This document shows, one piece after another, positions 193 through 48,900 of a stretch of 51,174 nt of DNA (position 1 is its first letter; the number at the start of each line of letters is the position of its first letter). This DNA is from Rozella allomycis CSF55. Lineage: Eukaryota. Made by a program: the position numbers and the translations under genes. The notes beneath the pieces were generated by a model. It saw only the letters and a list, made by a program, of their open reading frames with translations, had not been told where the DNA came from and did no database searches. The DNA lies in NCBI GenBank assembly GCA_000442015.1, contig KE560866.1:1-51174 (forward strand). The letters are read 5' to 3'.

Positions 193-2089
193 TTATTCAA
201 GTAAATGCTCATAAACCGTCCAATCGTAAGAGCTGGTATCAGTAAGTTTTAAACATTCTAAAATTTTTTTGAAAAGCGTGATCCTTTGTTTATCATAAGA
301 AGTCCAATGATTTGAAAACACATCAACCCAATTTACTTCTTTTATACGAGAGGTATCAACATCATCAAACGAATTCAATAGAAACTGCAAGTGTTCGGAT
401 TTTTTTTCAGTGTGTGGTCCCTCCAAATAACTGTAAAACATTTTTCTCCATTTATCCCAAATTTTTCGAAGGCCCTTAATGGCAAACATTCCAGATTGTT
501 TTAATAGAGTATATGAATTATGACTTCTTTGTGTGAACGCGAATTCAAACAATAACGGTCCGTCTTCGGGGAAGAATTTTACGAAATCCATAAACAGTCC
601 AGAATCNCATCCCAAATTTTTCGAAGACTCTTAATGGCAAACATTCCAGATTGTTTTAATAGGGTATATGATTTATGACTTCTTTGTGTGAACGCGAATT
701 CAAACAATAATGGTCCGTCTTCGGGGAAGAATTTTACGAAATCCATAAACAGTCCAGAATCATGGGTTGCTACAGCGTCATTTTGGAATAATCTGAAAAA
801 GAGGCGTCTTTTTTCATACCGATACAATGCAAATTTGGTTTTAAGTGCTTCGTTGATAATTGTAACCACAACCACGGGGTCAGGATGGTACAAAGATAGA
901 ACATTCATTATACTTTGAAATGATGAGTATGATAATGCATTAATATGATTTTGAAGCATGAATATGGCTAAATGAAGAATATTTGAATCCACTCTTGTAT
1001 TTTCATTACTGGCCTTTAAGAGCACATATGACATTGTCTTTTGATCAATTGGTTGTAGATGCAAACTTTGTGCAATTTTGTATGCCTTTAATTCATCATC
1101 ACTAAAATTGTTTAGTTTAATTAGGTTGCGAATATTCTCAATATTTGTATTCATTTCTTGTATAAAAGGGTTGCTATTAATGGAAGAAANGTTCACTCTT
1201 GTATTTTCATTACTGGCCTTTAAGAGTACATATGACATTGTCTTTTGATCAATTGGTTGTAGGTGCAAACTTTGTGCAATTTTATATGCCTTTAATTCAT
1301 CGTCACTGAAATTGTTTAGTTCAATTAGGTTGCGAATATTCTTAATATTTGTATTCATTTCTTGTATAAAAGGGTTGCTATTAACGAAAGAAATAGCTTT
1401 TGTACCCAGCGATTCCAAATAAAAATTGCGCTCTATTAAGATTTCAATGCATTCAGACATTTGTTTATCAATGCAATATGCTAAAGGATCAATATTCTCT
1501 TTTCCATATAAGTACTTGACATTGTAATTGTAACAGTTGAATGGTGTAAACTTCTTTTGCTTTATAAGTAATTTAATTAGGTCTTCTTTTGTAATTCTTT
1601 CGCTGTTCTTAAACTCAGCGTTTGGATCCAAAACATACTGGTAATATTTGTAGAACCTTTGAATGTCATCTTGTCCACAATCAACAACATTGAAGTAAGG
1701 GCCACACTTTCTAAACCAATGAAAAACAATATCANACTGTTTTTAAACTCGGCGTTTGGATCCAGTACATACTGGTAATATTTGTAGAACTTTTGAATGT
1801 CATCTTGTCCACAATCACCAACATTGAAGTGAGGGCCACACTTTCTAAACCAATGAAAAACAATATCAGCATTCAAAGCAACATTATGATAAAGAGATTT
1901 CTTTGTCAAACGAAAACGTTCGCTACTTTTGACATCCAAGAAATCATTGATACGATGATAGATATCAAACGGGATGATCTCTTCAAGAGCTTCCAAAGAG
2001 GCCTCAGTGGCGATACCAGGAGATTCTGAAGATGTCTTAGTGGCGATAGCAGAGCAAACTAAAAGAAAAAGGATGGCGAGAAACTTCAT
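193..2089 (-). CDS. Putative secreted protein with N-terminal F-box-like motif and ankyrin-like helical region; split by three assembly joins
   Basis: ATG at 2089 gives signal peptide MKFLAILFLLVCSAIAT, then IIPFDIYHRINDFLDVKSSERFRLTKKSLY (F-box-like) and DPLAYCIDKQMSECIEILIE (ankyrin-like). ORFs 1577-2095, 579-1631 and 193-615 join into one frame once the N-flanked duplicates are collapsed. Confidence 0.65.
454..760. repeat. ~153 bp near-identical tandem duplicate around single N at 607 (probable allelic overlap artefact)
   Basis: 454-606 repeats as 608-760 with a few substitutions. Confidence 0.85.
989..1391. repeat. ~200 bp near-identical tandem duplicate around single N at 1190
   Basis: 989-1189 repeats as 1191-1391; the peptide NSNPFIQEMNTNI...ENTRV appears twice in the ORF. 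Confidence 0.85.
1603..1868. repeat. ~132 bp near-identical tandem duplicate around single N at 1735
   Basis: 1603-1734 repeats as 1736-1868. Confidence 0.85.
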
Positions 2090-2266
2090 TGTCAAAAAAA
2101 GGTCTGGCCAGGGTGCAAATTTTTATATTTTTGATGATTGAATTCTATTTGGCTACACATATTTCGTTATTAAGACTGAGTTTCGAAATATGACAATTGA
2201 ATAGCTTTAACTATTTAATGTTCGGATTAGAAAAAGTATTATATATCAATTTGTCTATCCTCTCGA

Positions 2267-2340
2267 GGTCCTGTGGCCAAATTGGATAAGGCGCCTGACT
2301 ACGGATCAGGCGATTGCACGTTCGAGTCGTGCCAGGATCG
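2267..2340 (+). tRNA. tRNA-Arg (ACG)
   Basis: Acceptor stem GGTCCTG/CAGGATC; anticodon arm CCTGA-CT-ACG-GA-TCAGG; T-loop GTTCGAGT; T-run terminator follows. Confidence 0.95.
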
Positions 2341-2375
2341 ATTTTTTTAAAACATTTTACGCTGTGAAAAATTTA

Positions 2376-3194
2376 TTAACTTTCAAATATAATTCCCAAT
2401 TCCTTCAAAATATTCCCAATGGATTTGAATTTTTGTTTCAATTCCTCGTTTTGCAATCGTAGATTTAAATTTTCTCTCTTTAATACTTCGTTCATTTGTT
2501 TACAAATCAAAAATTCTTCATTTTGTTCTTTGCTGCTCATATTGTCTTTGCTGTTCATACTACTAGTTACCGTCTTCGTATTTGTTAAAAGAGGACTTTC
2601 AATCTCTATTTCCAAAATGGTTCCTTCATTGTCGGACTCTACCTCTCCATTCCTCTCATTCTGAATGATGTCATGCACGATAAAATTGACATTTGAAGCA
2701 TGATAATTGACAGTCCACTTTTCATCTTTTAAAGTAGCTTTTGATTCTTGAATAGCCGCGGACTTCAAAATAGATTCAAAAATCCTTAACAGGTTACTGA
2801 AGCTACGTTGGCTGAATCTTACGTGTATGATGTCAAAAATATTTGATCTTGGGAGTGCAAAAAAGAATTTTATCTGAAGAACAATGGAGAATGACTCTTT
2901 AATGGTTAAATAGGGTGGATAAAGAGCAACTATGGAATCAGATATCCTTATTTGCTCTTTTCCGAAATGCTGTACGTTATACACGGGATTGATTAGATTG
3001 CATAATTTTGAATCAAAATCTAATGAAAAACATCTCAAGGTATCGATGGAATTATTATCAACAATGTGGTTGGGCAGTAGTCTTAAGGATCCTGTTGCGG
3101 CGCCACTTCTTAATAGACAAATAGAATTGTACTTGTTAACTCTTAGGGAATGAAGCCATTTAAAAAAGTCACGAGAAGTCTCTGGCAAGTTCAT
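2376..3194 (-). CDS. Hypothetical protein with C-terminal coiled coil (272 aa)
   Basis: Uninterrupted ATG-to-stop ORF; leucine-zipper-like C-terminus; no family recognised. Confidence 0.6.
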   Translation of the reverse strand: MNLPETSRDFFKWLHSLRVNKYNSICLLRSGAATGSLRLLPNHIVDNNSIDTLRCFSLDFDSKLCNLINPVYNVQHFGKEQIRISDSIVALYPPYLTIKESFSIVLQIKFFFALPRSNIFDIIHVRFSQRSFSNLLRIFESILKSAAIQESKATLKDEKWTVNYHASNVNFIVHDIIQNERNGEVESDNEGTILEIEIESPLLTNTKTVTSSMNSKDNMSSKEQNEEFLICKQMNEVLKRENLNLRLQNEELKQKFKSIGNILKELGIIFES

Positions 3195-4080
3195 TTAAAG
3201 CTTATCAAAAAGTTTATTCGCAAGACAAAACTTTGACCAATAATGGTAAGGTGAAATTTTCATATTTAATGATATCAATAATGAATAGCAGTACATCTTC
3301 ACGTCGAAGTTGACATATTTTTGACGCAATAGTTTCTGTGGCCAGAACATTTTCAGAAGATGATTTCACGTCGAATATTCGAGATATCTAATCNAACGGT
3401 CCACTTTTCATCTTTTAAAGTGGCTTTTGATTCTTGTATAGCCGCGGACTTCAAAATAGATTCTAAAATCCTTAACAGGTTACTGTAGCTCCGTTGGCTG
3501 AATCTTACGTGTATGATGTCAAAAATATTTGATCTTGGGAGTGCAAAAAAGAATTTTATCTGAAGAACAATGGAGAATGACTCTTTAATGGTTAAATAGG
3601 GTGGATAAAGAGCAACTATGGAATCAGATATCCTTATTTGCTCTTTTCCGAAATGCTGTACGTTATACACGGGATTGATTAGATTGCATAATTTTGAATC
3701 AAAATCTAATGAAAAACATCTCAAGGTATCGATGGAATTATTATCAACAATGTGGTTGGGCAGTAGTCTTAAGGATCCTGTTGCGGCGCCACTTCTTAAT
3801 AGACAAATAGAATTGTACTTGTTAACTCTTAGGGAATGAAGCCATTTAAAAAAGTCACGAGAAGTCTCTGGCAAGTTCATTTAAAGCTTATCAAAAAGTT
3901 TATTCGCAAGACAAAACTTTGACCAATAATGGTAAGGTGAAATTTTCATATTTAATGATATCAATAATAAATAGCAGTACATCTTCATGTCGAAGTTGAC
4001 AGATTTTTGACGCAATAGTTTCTGTGGCGAGAACATTTTCAGAAGATGATTTCACGTCGAATATTCGAGATATCTAATCT
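2708..4080. repeat. ~686 bp near-identical tandem duplicate around single N at 3394; creates the partial second copy ORF 3353-3880
   Basis: 2708-3393 repeats as 3395-4080; differences cluster near the ends. Confidence 0.85.
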
Positions 4081-43099: not shown

Positions 43100-43347
43100 A
43101 AAACCCTTGTATACCCTTGCTGCGAAAACAAAGTCATCTTTGGGTTTTTAGAAATTTCTCAAATTATTTTAAATTCCGAATTCTTCTTTGACACAAATGC
43201 AATAAATTTGCTGTTTCTGCTTTGAGATTTATAAAATACGTGTGAGGCACTGAAGTAATGACGTTTTAAATGTTAATTACATAATATGCAATAAAAAAGT
43301 GTTTCTAAAGAAATATTTAGTTGTTTTATTCATTTCAAAAAGCATAA

Positions 43348-44226
43348 TTAAAAAAGTAGTTTTGACGGCATCGCAATTTCATCAACCTGTGCAGGATCAA
43401 TAACTTCAATACACATAGTCTTGTTCAGTTTCTCCTTGCTCAATTTGCTGTTTCCTCTATTCTTTTTATCATCAATGGGATTAATTGTGGAGGAAACAAT
43501 CGCAGTATAATTTTGAATTGTGAAAACTACAAAAACATACGCTCCCCAGTCAATAACAAGTGCTATCACCAAAGACACAATGCTACCAAGAATCGCTACA
43601 CAAATACGGATACTAACATTATAAAAGAGCTGCTGAATTGTTTTCGCACAAATATCAAACTTTCTTATCATTTTGATATGTCTTAGAGTTGGAATCGCAA
43701 ACATCACCAATGACATGATATACACAATAATTAACATGATCTTTCCTACAGTATTAGACACTATATCATATTCCGTTGAACATTTGCCATTCACAGACAC
43801 ACTATCCACCCTAACAATAACAGAATACGCAATCGACCCATATCCTACCGCAAACATTCCAAACACAAATAGTCTCAACAGCTTTGTAATTCTAGCATCT
43901 TGACTTATTGAAGATGCCTTGCTTATCAAAACAACCGTTGACAGTAGCTGGAAGACAAAATAAAAGGCATCATTAAAGCCAGACATCAAGCTACAGTTAC
44001 CCCCAAAAAGATTCAACGCTGGTACACTTAGGCGGATGATAAACAACAAGTGGTTTAGGAATTGGCTCGCTGATGCCACACATTGAACTATTAGCAATGT
44101 TCGCTTCGGACCGGCAGTTTCACATGAAAATAGTGCCTTTGCATTAAGATATACGTTATGAAGCGATAAAATGAAAAAGGCGCCCAGGAACTCGTGAACT
44201 GTAATGGCGGATGCTTCGCACTGCAT
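43348..44226 (-). CDS. Orphan 7-transmembrane (GPCR-like) protein, intronless
   Basis: About seven hydrophobic segments with Cys in the predicted extracellular loops 1 and 2; first ATG at 44226. Confidence 0.65.
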   Translation of the reverse strand: MQCEASAITVHEFLGAFFILSLHNVYLNAKALFSCETAGPKRTLLIVQCVASASQFLNHLLFIIRLSVPALNLFGGNCSLMSGFNDAFYFVFQLLSTVVLISKASSISQDARITKLLRLFVFGMFAVGYGSIAYSVIVRVDSVSVNGKCSTEYDIVSNTVGKIMLIIVYIMSLVMFAIPTLRHIKMIRKFDICAKTIQQLFYNVSIRICVAILGSIVSLVIALVIDWGAYVFVVFTIQNYTAIVSSTINPIDDKKNRGNSKLSKEKLNKTMCIEVIDPAQVDEIAMPSKLLF

Positions 44227-44334
44227 CAATTTAACCCTGGTTGGCAAAAGTCCGAAAAAGACAACCTCAGTTCATAATATAAACATTGAAATGTTATTAT
44301 TTTTATTTATAATAAGTGATTAATGTATTGTCAT

Positions 44335-44660
44335 TGAGAATCTGAGATTTTGTCTCCGCTTTATCGGTAGTAAATTGTGAATGTTAGCACAGACTGTCAG
44401 ACAGTGTTAAACGCACGAAATCAGAAACTTTGTGGTCAAACAAGATATTTTTCATTGCTGAAAAAAACTAAATAAGCCCGGAGAAACAAGTAGTTTGACC
44501 TTTTGGGTATGTATATACAATAAGCGGTCGTCGGAGTTGAAAATATGTAACTTAAGATAGATGTCGATGTTCCATTCACTTCAATTGGTAGATCCATTGA
44601 GTTTTTTCTCTTTCTCAATTTACGAATCCAATAGCCATGATTATGGCAGTTATTCTCGAT
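44335..44660 (-). pseudogene. Degenerate, internally deleted copy of the alpha/beta hydrolase at 45954-46988
   Basis: 44440-44560 aligns with 46070-46197 (AAGATATTTTTCATTGC..CCCGGAGAAACA..ATATACAATAAGCG); the 3' flank TGAGATT.TGTCTCCGCTTT is shared at ~44343 and ~45887. Confidence 0.75.
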
Positions 44661-45048
44661 TTAAGTACTCAAGCGTTTGATATACCAAAGCCGTTTATGA
44701 CAAAATATTCGATACCGATGGGCCCGCTTGGGCAAATGTTTTCTCCAAGCGAAAAGCATAAAAATGTGATATGGACAATCCAAGAGTATCAATCATAAAA
44801 TTACTCCAATGATGCGTGAAGTTTACAATAATACACAATATGTCAAAGCGTGTTTTAACTTTGATCTGCAGTTGATGGCATTTCAAAAGAACATGGGTAA
44901 AGCTGAACCAAGTGATCGGGATTTGGATGATATTTATTCTTTGTCGACTAATGAAATTTAGATATTTAGAAATAAAAAATATCAACATATTGACTGTCCG
45001 GTGGTCTAGTGGCAAACCATGATGCTTTCGGACGTCTAGGTGCATGGT

Positions 45049-45262
45049 AGGTCAATCCTGGCAGCAAGAAGACTGTGCTTGAAATTGTCGCCAAGGATCA
45101 AAATGGATACTTGTATATTATCGAGATGCAGGTATTAAACACAGTGATCGTTTATTTATAGACAACACACAATAGCAATTTTCAGGACAGATTCTATTAC
45201 GATAAGCTGTCAGAGACCAGGAAATCGCAGCTCTAAAGCGAAAACTTGGTACTTACGAATAA
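45049..45262 (+). pseudogene. Rpn / PD-(D/E)XK nuclease-transposase (PDDEXK_2) fragment, copy 1, with a 30-nt intron
   Basis: VNPGSKKTVLEIVAKDQNGYLYIIEMQ | intron 45132-45161 GT..AG | TTHNSNFQDRFYYDK. Confidence 0.7.
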
Positions 45263-45687
45263 ATTTAACGAATTCAGTTAATGGATATCTAAATTCTTTT
45301 TCTTTGAGGGAACGGTTAATGTATTGAAAACTTTTCCATCATCGGAGTCCAGACCATATTGCCTTCATTGTCTGGTACTCCACGACACATTGACCATATT
45401 GACGGACTGCTGTTCCTCCAAAAATACTATACTTTGACGAATTTACAATGATCGTTACATCTGACTTACAAAGGTTTTAACTACTTACGGTAGGTAATTC
45501 TGTCATATTTCTGACCGTTTTTGAGGCTCTTGGCCACATGTTGAGCCTTATAATAGTAGAATCTGCCCTGAAAATTGTTATTGTGTCTTGTCTATTAATA
45601 AACCCTGCATCTCGATATTATACAAGTATCCGTTTTGATCCTTGGCGACAATATCAAGCACAGTCTTCTTGCTGCCAGGATTGACCT
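45049..45687. repeat. Inverted repeat, arms 45049-45206 and 45547-45687
   Basis: AGGTCAATCCTGGCAGCAAGAAGACTGTGCTTGA..GAGATGCAGG is the reverse complement of CCTGCATCTC..CTTGCTGCCAGGATTGACCT. Confidence 0.9.
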
Positions 45688-45690
45688 CTA
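45400..45690 (-). pseudogene. Rpn / PD-(D/E)XK nuclease-transposase fragment, copy 2 (inverted)
   Basis: EVNPGSKKTVLDIVAKDQNGYLYNIEMQ..TRHNNNFQGRFYYYKAQHVAKSLKNGQKYDRI; the intron is collapsed to a 13-nt remnant. Confidence 0.75.
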
Positions 45691-45953
45691 CACAGTCACC
45701 AGAATTACATTCTGGGATATTGCCTTAATCTTCTAGAAAAGACATTTTGTGTTAACTGAGTTAGTAAGACTTGAGGCCTTGTTTCCTCTTTTAATTTAGC
45801 GTCCATCATTTAGAATCTCTGGAATGATCTTTGGAAATCTCAAAGCACTTTTTTCGCTCTCAAGCTATTCTTTACATGTAGTGCCATGAGATTCTGTCTC
45901 CGCTTTGCCAATGGCCGTAGTAAATAAGGAAAATATGTTAACCGGATTTATTT

Positions 45954-46988
45954 TTAGAGGTGTGGCATGGATGAATTGGTTTTCACTATTTTAATGGCGC
46001 CTTCAGGAAATCCAAATGCTTTTACGTCGATTTTTTCACCTGCTCCAATCCATTGAAGTACTGGGTACCATAAGATATTTTTCATTGCAGAACGAAAAAA
46101 TTTAAGATGACCCGGAGAAACAGGAAGTTTGGCTTTTTGGGTATCCATATACAATAAGCGACCGTCCGAATTTGAAAATATATATCTTAAGGTAGAGTCA
46201 AACGCTTCAAATCCAGATAATTCATCATCTGAAAAGGCAATAAATTCAATTGGAAGTGTGCATTTTTCAAACAATGCCTTGTTTTCAGGACGATGACACA
46301 TGTAGGCCTTATAATTACACCAGTACATCCACTGCAAACCAACATTGCTAGGTATATCTTCACCCAGACCCACGATTGATGATGGATAATAACCATAAGT
46401 TGGTACAGCTATGTAAGGTGCTACGACATTTAACAGGAATTTGGCATAACCCGGTACTTTACCCCATTGCCACCATTTGTAAAATGCGTTGTTCACGCTA
46501 ATAAAAAGAACTCTGGTTAGTAAATTTTGATTTCTTAAAAATCCTAGAATATGACCTCCGACAGAATGTGCAATGTAGACAATTGGATGACCAGAATATA
46601 CCTTTGAAAGAAATTGGACGCATGATTCAGTGTCGCGAGTCCAATGATTTTTAATATTGGAATCTTAAAGTTCTCTTAATGCTTTTTGGCGATAATTTTG
46701 GTCATCAAGTAAGTTGATATCTTGCTCTGGATTGAAATCTTTGGTATGACATGATTTACCTACTCCTCGATAATCAAATAATAAACATGCATGAACTGCT
46801 GATTCAGAGACTAAAAAGGAAGCAAATGAAGTATAGTATTCTTTAACAACACCGGTTGCACCTGCGATTATGGCTACTGGCTTTCTATTGTAATCATTTG
46901 TATTCTGGTTGGAAACAACAATAGCTGATATGTAGAACTTTTCAAATGATTCTATCCAATGATGAGTGATAATTGTCGATGACATCAA
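45954..46988 (-). pseudogene. Bacterial-type alpha/beta hydrolase (COG4757-like) interrupted by one in-frame TAA
   Basis: GATGV..YY..FA.FL, FDYRGVGKS, AHSVGG nucleophile elbow, GLGEDIP, FSDD, GH..FF. The two ORFs are in the same frame, separated only by TAA at 46665-46667. Confidence 0.75.
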
Positions 46989-47188
46989 CCCTTATCTTCT
47001 TTGAGAATTTTCGTGTTAATTGATGAAAAACTCCTGAAATAAACAATATTTCATTCTATCGAATCATTGGTTAAATTTCATGAACAATTTAAAATCATTG
47101 CATGAACCTGTCAGTGTACTGTTAGATTTTGTAGGTTTCATAAAAAGTAATTTGTAAATCTATTTTCAATGTCATAATTGTCTTTTAT

Positions 47189-48900
47189 TTAAGATGGTGG
47201 TGTTAATCTCTCCAATATAGTGGGATATTCGTTGTTTTTCAATTTTGTTTCAAATTCCTCCACTTTCTTTATCCAGGCATCTCGACTATCATCATCTTCT
47301 TCTGTTATTGATGCTTTTACACGCTTTCTAAAAGCTCTGTTGGATGAAAATAATGGTTGCAGATTTAAATCTTCCTCGATGTTAGAGTTCACACGGAGCT
47401 CAATAGCCGAAGCCAAGTCTTCGTCAGAAGGAGACACAAAATTGATAACTTTCCCTTTGACCTTATTTGTTCGTCCACTTCTTCCAACACGGTGTATGTA
47501 TTCCACAGCCCCTCTAGGGAAATCGAATTGAACAATTAAATGTGTGTCGGCAAAGTCAATTCCCCTTGCGACCGCATCTGTAGTTACAAGAACGTTAACT
47601 TTCTTTGGTTCAAGTCCATCCTTATATAGTGCCTTTGACTTTAATGTAATGTGAACATTTGAGTCACATTTGGGCTCTTTATAAAAGGTCATCACTAATT
47701 TTAACATTTGCAAACGGTCGTAAGGATTGATTCCCCCATGGTAGCAAAGAATTTGAATAGAATCTTTTGCAGAAACGTCAAATATTTGACTTAATTTCTC
47801 AGACACTGCTGTTGCGACATTTGCAGAGTTTACAAAGACAAGCACGTTTCTTTTTCCTTCTAGAGTTGCTTGTTGACCAATTTCTTTAGATATTTCTTTT
47901 ATTTTCTTTTGAAAAACATCAGCAGGATCGTCAGAATCAACACCAACACGAAGGAATGCATGATCTTTTAAAGTTGTTACATGAGCTTTGTCTGATAAGA
48001 AATATGGAATGGGGTGAAGGACACTTTTCAACTTTTCAGAGCGCGATATTTCTTCTTCTTTCTTTACCAACATTTTCAGAACAGTAGCAGATGTAAGTAT
48101 TAATTGTTGATCGACATATTTTTTTGAATATTCCTGAAGCAATGTTGGTAAACTTTCATATTCTTCTTTGGTGTAATAAGGAGACATTTTCTTCACCTTC
48201 TTCTTCCTCAAATAATTGAATAGACTCTTCAGCAGTTCACTTTCATGTCCAGATTTCATCTAAATAATTAATAAATGTCATCATTTACCATTATATCAAA
48301 TTCATCAAATGCAACTAAATCTACATGCTTAAACCAAAAATTTATGTCGTCCACTGAAAAGTCTTTAAATAAGCGCCCAGTCACCATTACACATACATCA
48401 GGCTTCTGAAATTCTTCATAAAATGATTTGTAAGTCCTTTCAACCTCTTTATTGGCTTTGTATCCTCTACAAAGATTTTTTGCCAACTCGAGATTTTCCT
48501 TGAAATTCTGCATATCATACCTCTGAACCGCATTAGAGACTATAACATTAGTATTTGAAGATAGCTGCGCATGATTTTCTAGAAACGTTGTTATCATGGA
48601 ATGAGCTTGAAATGATAGTTCCATTGTTGGTACAAGAACAACAGCGGTAGGGAATACCGAACTTCTCTTCTTCATCAATTTCTCCATCATAGGCAGCAAG
48701 TATAGCAATGACTTTCCACTTCCAGTCTCCGCCCCAATATGTGCATTACCTCCAGATAGTACATGCGGCAGCACCTTTTCTTGAATATTAGTCATTCTTT
48801 CTATGCCAAGCTTTGCTAATGCAGACAATGTATCCACATGTATTGGTAAGTCTTTAAAAAATGACGATTTTATGATGTTTGACGCCAACTGATTTTGCAT
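47189..48900 (-). CDS. DEAD-box RNA helicase (DEFD variant; possibly mitochondrial Mrh4/DDX28-like)
   Basis: AETGSGKS, PTMEL, DEFD, SAT, TTDAVARGID, HRVGRSGR; one ~29-nt intron near 48260-48288. Confidence 0.85.

Follow-up and report, generated by a model that had tools for sequence, protein, structure and literature searches.

A probable relic of an Rpn-type nuclease gene with a host-sized intron in an inverted repeat of Rozella allomycis

Bacterial genes that were transferred to eukaryotes and later gained spliceosomal introns form a general class, and in animals and fungi, hairpin RNAs and endogenous small RNAs arise from inverted-repeat pseudogene loci. In proteins of the PD-(D/E)XK fold the catalytic motif reads D ... 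E-x-Q/K. Here we describe a locus at positions 45049 to 45690 of a 51,174-nucleotide (nt) stretch of DNA from Rozella allomycis CSF55 (contig KE560866.1; the whole stretch is called the window in the following), where an inverted repeat encodes pieces of a protein similar to the Rpn nucleases (family PDDEXK_2, Pfam PF12784). The E. coli proteins RpnA-E are toxic DNA endonucleases with intragenic antitoxins (PMC10400941), and PDDEXK_2 is entered as 'Bacteria' in a survey table (PMC3424549). Our literature search, which did not cover the supplementary rpn ortholog distribution of PMC10400941, found, among the papers listed, none on an intron-bearing eukaryotic member of the Rpn/PDDEXK_2 family. 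For PDDEXK_2 in combination with eukaryotes, it returned the Wolbachia cif loci and one superfamily survey, and for Rpn in combination with transfer and fungi a cyanobacterium.

In our view the locus is probably, with a likelihood of roughly three in four, a non-functional relic of a PDDEXK_2/Rpn nuclease gene of bacterial ancestry that carries at least one ultra-short intron of the host type and resides in a fungus-like nuclear genome. It has in common with bacterial Rpn proteins the N-terminal helix region (present in the relative P0001 described below), the motifs D...I-E-M-Q and R.YY and a following ..YD.., and it aligns without gaps with the Rpn of Haliovirga abyssi over 61 residues. In contrast to the bacterial proteins, it is a relic within a eukaryotic nuclear genome, has host-type introns of 26-32 nt, comprises about a third of the protein, is broken, and has diverged so far that single-sequence searches find no bacterial member. 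As the C-terminal variable tail is missing from the relic, nothing in it matches the internal antitoxin of bacterial Rpn proteins, which in E. coli is also encoded by the C-terminal region. Like the transferred genes that gained introns, the locus combines a bacterial-only family with a eukaryotic context and with introns of the host's size class; unlike them, it presents only a dead relic, with one, perhaps two introns packed at a high density into about 240 nt of coding sequence. The locus resembles the hairpin-forming pseudogene loci in that part of a gene fragment is repeated in the opposite orientation, giving a stem of about 150 base pairs and a loop of 340 nt, known here from DNA alone.

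An inverted repeat with similarity to Rpn nucleases

The arms of the inverted repeat occupy positions 45049-45206 on the plus strand (copy 1) and 45547-45687 on the minus strand (within copy 2). A repeat search divided the arms into two pairs that adjoin each other: 45049-45137/45599-45687, 89 nt long with 94% complementarity, and 45150-45206/45547-45603, 57 nt long with 88%. Comparison of the region with the whole window by blastn gave a single match of 158 columns with 82.9% identity (E=5e-45), and in the alignment of the arms 131 of the 141 aligned bases are identical, with one additional indel of 17 nt. These three results confirm the inverted repeat reported in the preliminary description of the window. 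No extension of the palindrome past the arms was found when both sides were compared with shuffled sequences: the likeness score of the sides beyond 45206 and 45547 was 11.5, which is at shuffle level (mean 10.2, maximum 15.5). Thus, a 158-nt piece appears to have been duplicated in inverted orientation around a 340-nt spacer, and the locus is not a full palindrome. The spacer part between the arms at 45207-45341 has dissimilar sides, its open reading frames (ORFs) have no Pfam match, and its content is unrecognizable.

Both arms encode the D...IEMQ...R.YY core of the PDDEXK_2/Rpn nucleases. Copy 2 reads ..KKTVLDIVAKDQNGYLYNIEMQ within 45578-45724 and, in a second frame at 45481-45591, ..NFQGRFYYYKAQ..SLKNGQKYD.., while copy 1 reads ..KKTVLEIVAKDQNGYLYIIEMQ followed by ..NFQDRFYYDK. 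The two peptides differ in 6 residues and the SLKNGQKYD part is missing from copy 1. The earlier statement that both arms translate to one and the same peptide therefore holds for the core pieces, whereas the peptide quoted there is that of copy 2.

Assignment of the pieces to a protein family was based on profile hidden Markov models (HMMs) and on pairwise comparison with known members. With PF12784, the three pieces, each a fragment and each scored singly, reached 19.1 bits (first piece of copy 2; E=0.0012, profile positions 51-74), 13.6 bits (second piece of copy 2; E=0.055, positions 77-106) and 16.4 bits (first piece of copy 1; E=0.0079, positions 52-77). The two pieces of copy 2 hence match consecutive segments of the profile, with order and strand both correct. 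PF12784 was the sole Pfam family matched by the Rpn pieces, and no match to it was obtained with the ORFs of the spacer and the upstream region. TIGR01784, the NCBIfam model of the Rpn family, gave a match with E=5.6e-4 (19.8 bits) to the first piece of copy 2.

For the pairwise comparison, a model of copy 2 was built from the coordinates with the interrupting segment removed, and was compared by local alignment, using 500 shuffles, with two genes located on plasmids, the Rpn genes of Haliovirga abyssi (225 bits to PF12784) and Ligilactobacillus salivarius (62.9 bits). The spliced model aligned with the Haliovirga protein without a gap and with 24 of 61 residues identical (39%), and with the Ligilactobacillus protein at 20 of 75 residues with one gap of 8 residues; the local scores correspond to z=13-14. 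The exon-1 piece alone already gave a local score of 74 against the Haliovirga protein (z=12.6), and joining the exon-2 piece to it raised the scores from 74 to 101 and from 58 to 94 for the two comparators, respectively. The D of LDIV and the I-E-M-Q of copy 2 align with LDIK and I-E-M-Q of the bacterial member, so that the putative catalytic motif D...E-x-Q appears to be kept in copy 2. On the strength of the matches to consecutive profile segments below the cut-offs, the gapless alignment and the z values, we accept the fragment as a presumptive member of the PDDEXK_2/Rpn family, in line with the earlier assignment.

Among 5.8 billion proteins, a single close relative was detected. This protein, P0001, has 116 residues and stems from a contig of 1026 nt. 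It is a prokaryote-style gene call with a Met start and includes the N-terminal region of the family. P0001 is 78% identical to the first piece of copy 2, and the identity of its residues 31-75 to copy 2 amounts to 71%; the homology runs about 31 nt past the right arm, to position 45718. P0001 matches PF12784 with E=6.5e-5 (23.2 bits, profile positions 16-77). In a protein atlas, 26 of the 30 feature matches of its residues 1-68 were PF12784 sets (top score 0.94), and its best tblastn match among plasmids falls in a gene annotated as Rpn family.

Further searches yielded few candidates. When the exon-1 peptide was compared with longer proteins, one of three candidates could be scored, which was again P0001, and none of the 94 candidates scored when P0001 itself was used against longer proteins. 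The alignment search among proteins of similar length returned 4 of 328 candidates with E<=10, namely P0001, the bacterial PF12784 fragments P0005 and P0006, and P0007. No relative was confirmed among 216 pattern matches in JGI metagenome contigs or among 61 in prokaryote genomes. The 79 pattern matches in viral contigs contained one candidate (L003), an AT-rich ORF of 861 residues with 27% identity that covers the out-of-frame tail of the query and was rejected by eye. Three other phmmer matches of P0001 with E<=0.001, to Ig/PKD, InlB-repeat and LRR-Roc proteins, were rejected as spurious. P0007, a Logan protein of 74 residues without Pfam match, has ..D-I-..KDQNGYLY.. in common with the window peptide, with K in place of the motif E; it may represent another related sequence in decay, from an AT-rich genome, or match by chance.

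A probable intron of host size and the decay of both copies

In copy 1 the codons for IEMQ are directly followed by a complete segment of 30 nt (45132-45161, plus strand) that begins with GT, ends with AG, interrupts the reading frame in phase 0 and contains an in-frame stop at its end. Upon its removal, the spacing from IEMQ to R.YY becomes the same as in the bacterial members, and the alignment is gapless. Four introns of neighboring conserved genes, checked by hand, are 29, 26, 29 and 28 nt long. Furthermore, the window was scanned for GT..AG segments connecting two reading frames that are both open for at least 60 codons, a heuristic that includes false candidates; of the 29 frame-joining candidates that start with GTAA or GTAT, 19 are 26-31 nt long, as compared to 4 of the 37 others.

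P0001 provides a second view of this site. Its sequence continues from IEMQ for 10 codons, after which exon 2 follows off-frame (70% identity to the off-frame translation of the window). Consequently, 3n+2 = 32 nt lie between IEMQ and exon 2 in P0001, and their removal restores the frame. The segment must start with GT, since Val is always encoded by GTN. A length that varies between 30 and 32 nt while removal restores the frame is the behavior of an intron. In addition, the 17-nt deletion of copy 2 falls wholly within this segment. A spliceosomal intron of the host type (intron 1) is therefore well supported as the probable nature of the segment, and we infer that it would be removed by splicing. 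With its host-like size, the gapless alignment after removal and the 32 nt implied by P0001, the 30-nt GT-AG intron that had been proposed after IEMQ in copy 1 is upheld; the remnant proposed for copy 2 is likewise found, as a stump of 13 nt at 45604-45592. Introns of this host are unusually short (26-31 nt) across the window.

A second segment of this kind is located in copy 2 at 45461-45488 (minus strand). It is 28 nt long, reads GTAAGT..CAG, interrupts the frame in phase 1 and agrees with the host introns in ends and length, and an out-of-frame T-V-S of P0001 is compatible with the same GT.AG. start at this site. The second GTAAG..AG candidate of the preliminary description is thus present with host-like ends and length, while the piece behind it carries no family signal. 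Intron 2 stays a weak candidate, for which the ends and the length fit.

Copy 2 can be followed on the minus strand through three pieces. The exon-1-like piece (45605-45724) consists of 40 codons, reads ..IPE..KKTVLDIVAKDQNGYLYNIEMQ up to ..IEMQ and contains the putative catalytic D (in LDIV) as well as E-x-Q. It is followed by the intron-1 stump at 45592-45604, which according to the arm alignment, with letters checked, is 17 nt shorter than the intron of copy 1; a stump of 13 nt cannot be spliced, and it shifts the frame. The exon-2-like piece (45489-45591) reads ..HNNNFQGRFYYY..KNGQKYDRITY, also written ..HNNNFQGRFYYYKAQ..KNGQKYDRITY. Beyond candidate intron 2, a possible exon-3 remnant (45342-45460) has a frame that is open for 40 codons up to a stop at 45339-45341 (ORF 45339-45476); no family signal was detected in it with PF12784 or in the local scores against the two bacterial Rpn proteins.

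On its upstream side, a stop codon at 45725-45727 lies immediately before the first recognizable codon of copy 2, with further stops upstream, and neither a start codon nor a counterpart to the first 30 residues of P0001 was found there. What remains of copy 2 is at most about 114 of about 290 residues, with family signal in about 74 of them; the following 40 codons have none and end at the stop. The C-terminal half of an Rpn protein was not found in copy 2, neither by Pfam nor by comparison with the bacterial members. The locus does not hold the approximately 280-300 residues, C-terminal region included, of a full-length member; as far as its letters tell, it is a fragment of a PDDEXK_2/Rpn member and not a complete member gene.

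Copy 1 (45049-45206, plus strand) is the inverted partial duplicate of 158 nt. It contains intron 1 between the 3' portion of exon 1 (45051-45131) and the 5' portion of exon 2 (45162-45206), and the putative catalytic D is replaced by E. In comparison with copy 2, 9 of 42 codons are changed, 6 of them non-synonymously and 3 synonymously, which is the pattern expected without constraint. Both copies are, to all appearances, dead.

Origin of the relic and competing explanations

The following course of events would account for the locus. A bacterial PDDEXK_2 gene may have entered the lineage and gained a host intron immediately behind the IEMQ motif, and perhaps another one 103 nt further downstream. 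Copy 2, from about 45724 down to 45342, would be the stump of this parent gene after loss of its function. A genomic piece of 158 nt, reaching from the end of exon 1 through intron 1 into the start of exon 2, would then have been copied in inverted orientation 340 nt away by some repair or replication error, adjoining a truncated dispersed repeat. Since the intron lies inside the duplicated piece, the duplication would have occurred at the DNA level and not from an mRNA. The parent copy would afterwards have lost 17 nt within the intron, and both copies would now drift neutrally; a transcript of the stretch, if made, would fold into a long hairpin. We infer this order of events, and the bacterial origin of the relic, from the observed repeat, the family likeness, the collinearity after removal of the segment and the match to the host intron size. 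Most likely the locus does nothing today: although the gene was unusual, its pseudogene relic, left by an old transfer from a bacterium to a eukaryote, is an ordinary one.

The locus shows an Rpn-type gene that was resident in a eukaryotic nucleus long enough to receive the short introns of its host, and because the bacterial protein serves as an uninterrupted reference, it illustrates, cleanly and on a small scale, how a transferred gene gained introns. Its weight is limited, as the fragment is dead and transfer followed by intron gain is already a known phenomenon; it would become more important if intact, expressed copies were found.

Several points weigh against this reading. All HMM matches lie under the curated gathering cut-offs (27.4 bits for PF12784 and 52.1 bits for TIGR01784): the best piece of the window reaches 19.1 and P0001 23.2 bits as compared to 27.4. 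Scores of this size are expected, because the pieces are fragments of 27-40 residues. Among 1.84 billion representatives, phmmer with P0001 returned no true relative besides P0001 itself, and with 39% identity over 61 residues for the best bacterial comparator, no bacterial donor can be named. Regarding intron 1, the AG end of the intron implied by P0001 is derived from an Arg codon, which begins with AG in both window copies and could be CGN in P0001. Moreover, the residues of the first three codons of intron 1 (45132-45140, V-L-N) also follow IEMQ in the bacterial fragments P0005 and P0006, so that the 5' part of the intron could be derived from former coding sequence; since these two fragments were selected by shared words, this agreement may be one of ascertainment. 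Finally, the piece behind candidate intron 2 adds little to the local scores (101 to 104 and 94 to 94), which leaves this intron weak.

Among the alternatives, a working hairpin-RNA locus survives best, although we regard it as improbable. The stem of about 150 base pairs would be diced to small RNAs that silence intact Rpn-like paralogs in trans. The stretch of 639 nt is indeed predicted to fold with -286 kcal/mol, compared to -142 +/- 7 kcal/mol for 20 shuffled sequences (z=-20.5), but any inverted repeat folds in this manner. At least one more intact-looking relative exists in the form of P0001; at a protein identity of 71% to copy 2, however, the two will have few perfect 21-mers in common. 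Copy 2 begins about 230 nt downstream of the stop of the gene at 45954-46991 on the same strand, so that read-through transcription is conceivable, whereas the possible deletion of one arm in two sequencing runs (see below), tentative as it is, argues against constraint.

A bolder idea, to which we give a similarly small chance, is that the lineage keeps intact, spliced Rpn nuclease genes, P0001 being the first exon of one, as a domesticated bacterial toxin or defense nuclease. The relic would then be a hairpin making small RNAs that restrain the nuclease, a eukaryotic counterpart of the bacterial intragenic antitoxin.

A foldback element or miniature inverted-repeat transposable element with Rpn-derived terminal inverted repeats, or the remnant of a nuclease-encoding transposon, is very unlikely. 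Such an origin is suggested by the inverted arms around an unrelated spacer, by the dispersed repeat that adjoins the left arm and by the Pfam title of PF12784, which says 'transposase'. Against it, no direct repeat or target-site duplication is present at the outer ends of the arms (flanks ..GCATGGT and CTACACA..), and the right arm has no element end on its outer side, since the homology to P0001 continues for about 31 nt to 45718. When both peptides were compared with the 51-kb window by tblastn, every match other than the two copies had E>0.2. Target duplication, element ends and multiple copies, the last sought in the window, are thus all missing at the locus. The E. coli study also reports that bacterial rpn genes, which encode toxic endonucleases with intragenic antitoxins, move by horizontal transfer, with no sign there of autonomous transposition (PMC10400941).

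These results bear on the proposal of the preliminary description that the family was transferred, gained introns and became a spreading family of mobile or effector nucleases in this eukaryote. Residence in a eukaryote and intron 1 are supported, while intron 2 is only a candidate. Neither spread nor a mobile or effector role is supported, given the absence of a third copy in the window and of a target duplication, the single close relative in 5.8 billion proteins, the absence of confirmed relatives in the three DNA collections and the broken state of both copies; the comparison of the flanks suggested at that time as a test for terminal inverted repeats and target-site duplications turned out negative.

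It is more improbable still that a spliced nuclease gene, formed by copy 2 or by both copies, continues to function at this locus. The D and E-x-Q of copy 2, which look catalytic, and the frame that stays open for 40 codons after candidate intron 2 would fit such a gene, but the stump of intron 1 cannot be spliced and shifts the frame, the stop at 45725-45727 precedes a copy without start codon or counterpart to the N-terminus of P0001, and the at most about 114 of about 290 residues that are left include 40 without family signal. Least probable of all is that the Rpn likeness arose by chance or reflects bacterial contamination or an assembly chimera, since, even with all HMM matches under the curated cut-offs, two adjacent pieces match consecutive profile segments in order, the z values against two true members are 13-14, the interruptions are host-sized, and the stretch occurs in 11 public runs of 8 studies, three of which have contigs placed across the stretch and its flanks.

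Genomic setting, independent contigs and variants

The presence of the stretch 44300-46700 in public sequencing data was examined in greater depth. The 11 runs listed for it fall under two organism labels, and seven of them contain at least half of its words. Contigs of the DNA runs X2, X5 and X4 cover all 30 bins of 43300-47300, and single contigs that begin within the left arm cross the spacer and reach into the right arm in X2 (45053-45555) and X4 (45074-45662), with 0-1 differences. As these contigs are short unitigs overlapping by 30 nt, the linkage to the flanks is by overlaps and not by a single spanning record. With contigs from several runs, the inverted repeat does not stem from an error in a single assembly. 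Together with the host-type intron and the eukaryotic flanking genes, these contigs bear out the earlier argument that the introns speak against contamination. No contig of the RNA run X13, which bears the same species label, was placed on the region, and no RNA run is among the listed runs with the stretch. Contig depth is not a copy number, and no copy count was drawn from it.

The window is gene-dense eukaryotic nuclear DNA with a G+C content of 32-41%. Its genes include a CHD-type SNF2 helicase, DEAD-box helicases, 3 tRNA genes and an LRR-PP2C-cyclase, an architecture that is found in fungal adenylate cyclase. The Rpn pieces are situated in a gap of 1.1 kb. On one side it is bounded by the gene at 45954-46991, which is on the minus strand and matches no Pfam family, and on the other, at 44442-44561 (minus strand), by a degraded tandem remnant of the 3' portion of this gene, which was recognized by blastn (81.6% over 125 columns to 46072-46196) and tblastn (64% over 28 residues, E=3e-6).

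A dispersed short repeat (44991-45048, plus strand) ends exactly where the left arm begins. The bin 44908-45041 has a summed contig depth of about 16 times that of the flank and is represented by several contigs with different flanks, and other copies of the repeat continue differently after 45048. The cut of the repeat at 45048 marks a rearrangement junction. The repeat has a box similar to a tRNA D-arm and was not called by ARAGORN or Rfam; Rfam gave no match at E<=1 on 44000-46200.

In X2 and X5, one contig each joins 45043 to 45526 and thereby skips 482 nt (45044-45525), so that copy 1 and the spacer are missing along with the 3' portion of copy 2. The shorter side of these contigs has only 30 letters, and the joint was not seen in X4. 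The depths of interior and joint add up to about that of the right flank (95.9+48.5 compared to 136.5 in X2, 220.8+97.9 compared to 325.5 in X5). Tentatively, about one molecule in three may carry a deletion allele that lacks 45044-45525. A second contig variant was observed in X2 and/or X5 at 43851-43909, 44853-44944, 45566-45603, 45771-45842 and 46636-46688. It has about one quarter to one third of the depth, shows clusters of single-nucleotide polymorphisms, small indels and the replacement of 70 by 32 nt, and is absent from X4, which suggests two haplotypes or strains in the samples of X2 and X5. The variant contig of one run has indels within the 'coding' part of the Rpn relic.

Two observations concern other parts of the window. 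In each of the DNA runs X2, X5 and X4, a stretch of 46 nt at 44398-44443 reaches 40-170 times the depth of the flank and continues in one consistent way to either side; probably this is a scrap, within the decayed gene relic, that is identical to a sequence of very high copy number (organelle or rDNA?). The region 193-3880, which contains the 5 N letters of the window, shows near-identical tandem duplicates and may reflect a problem of assembly or heterozygosity; internal repeats are found in 193-1742, and the ORFs 2376-3194 and 3353-3880 have the same first approximately 130 residues.

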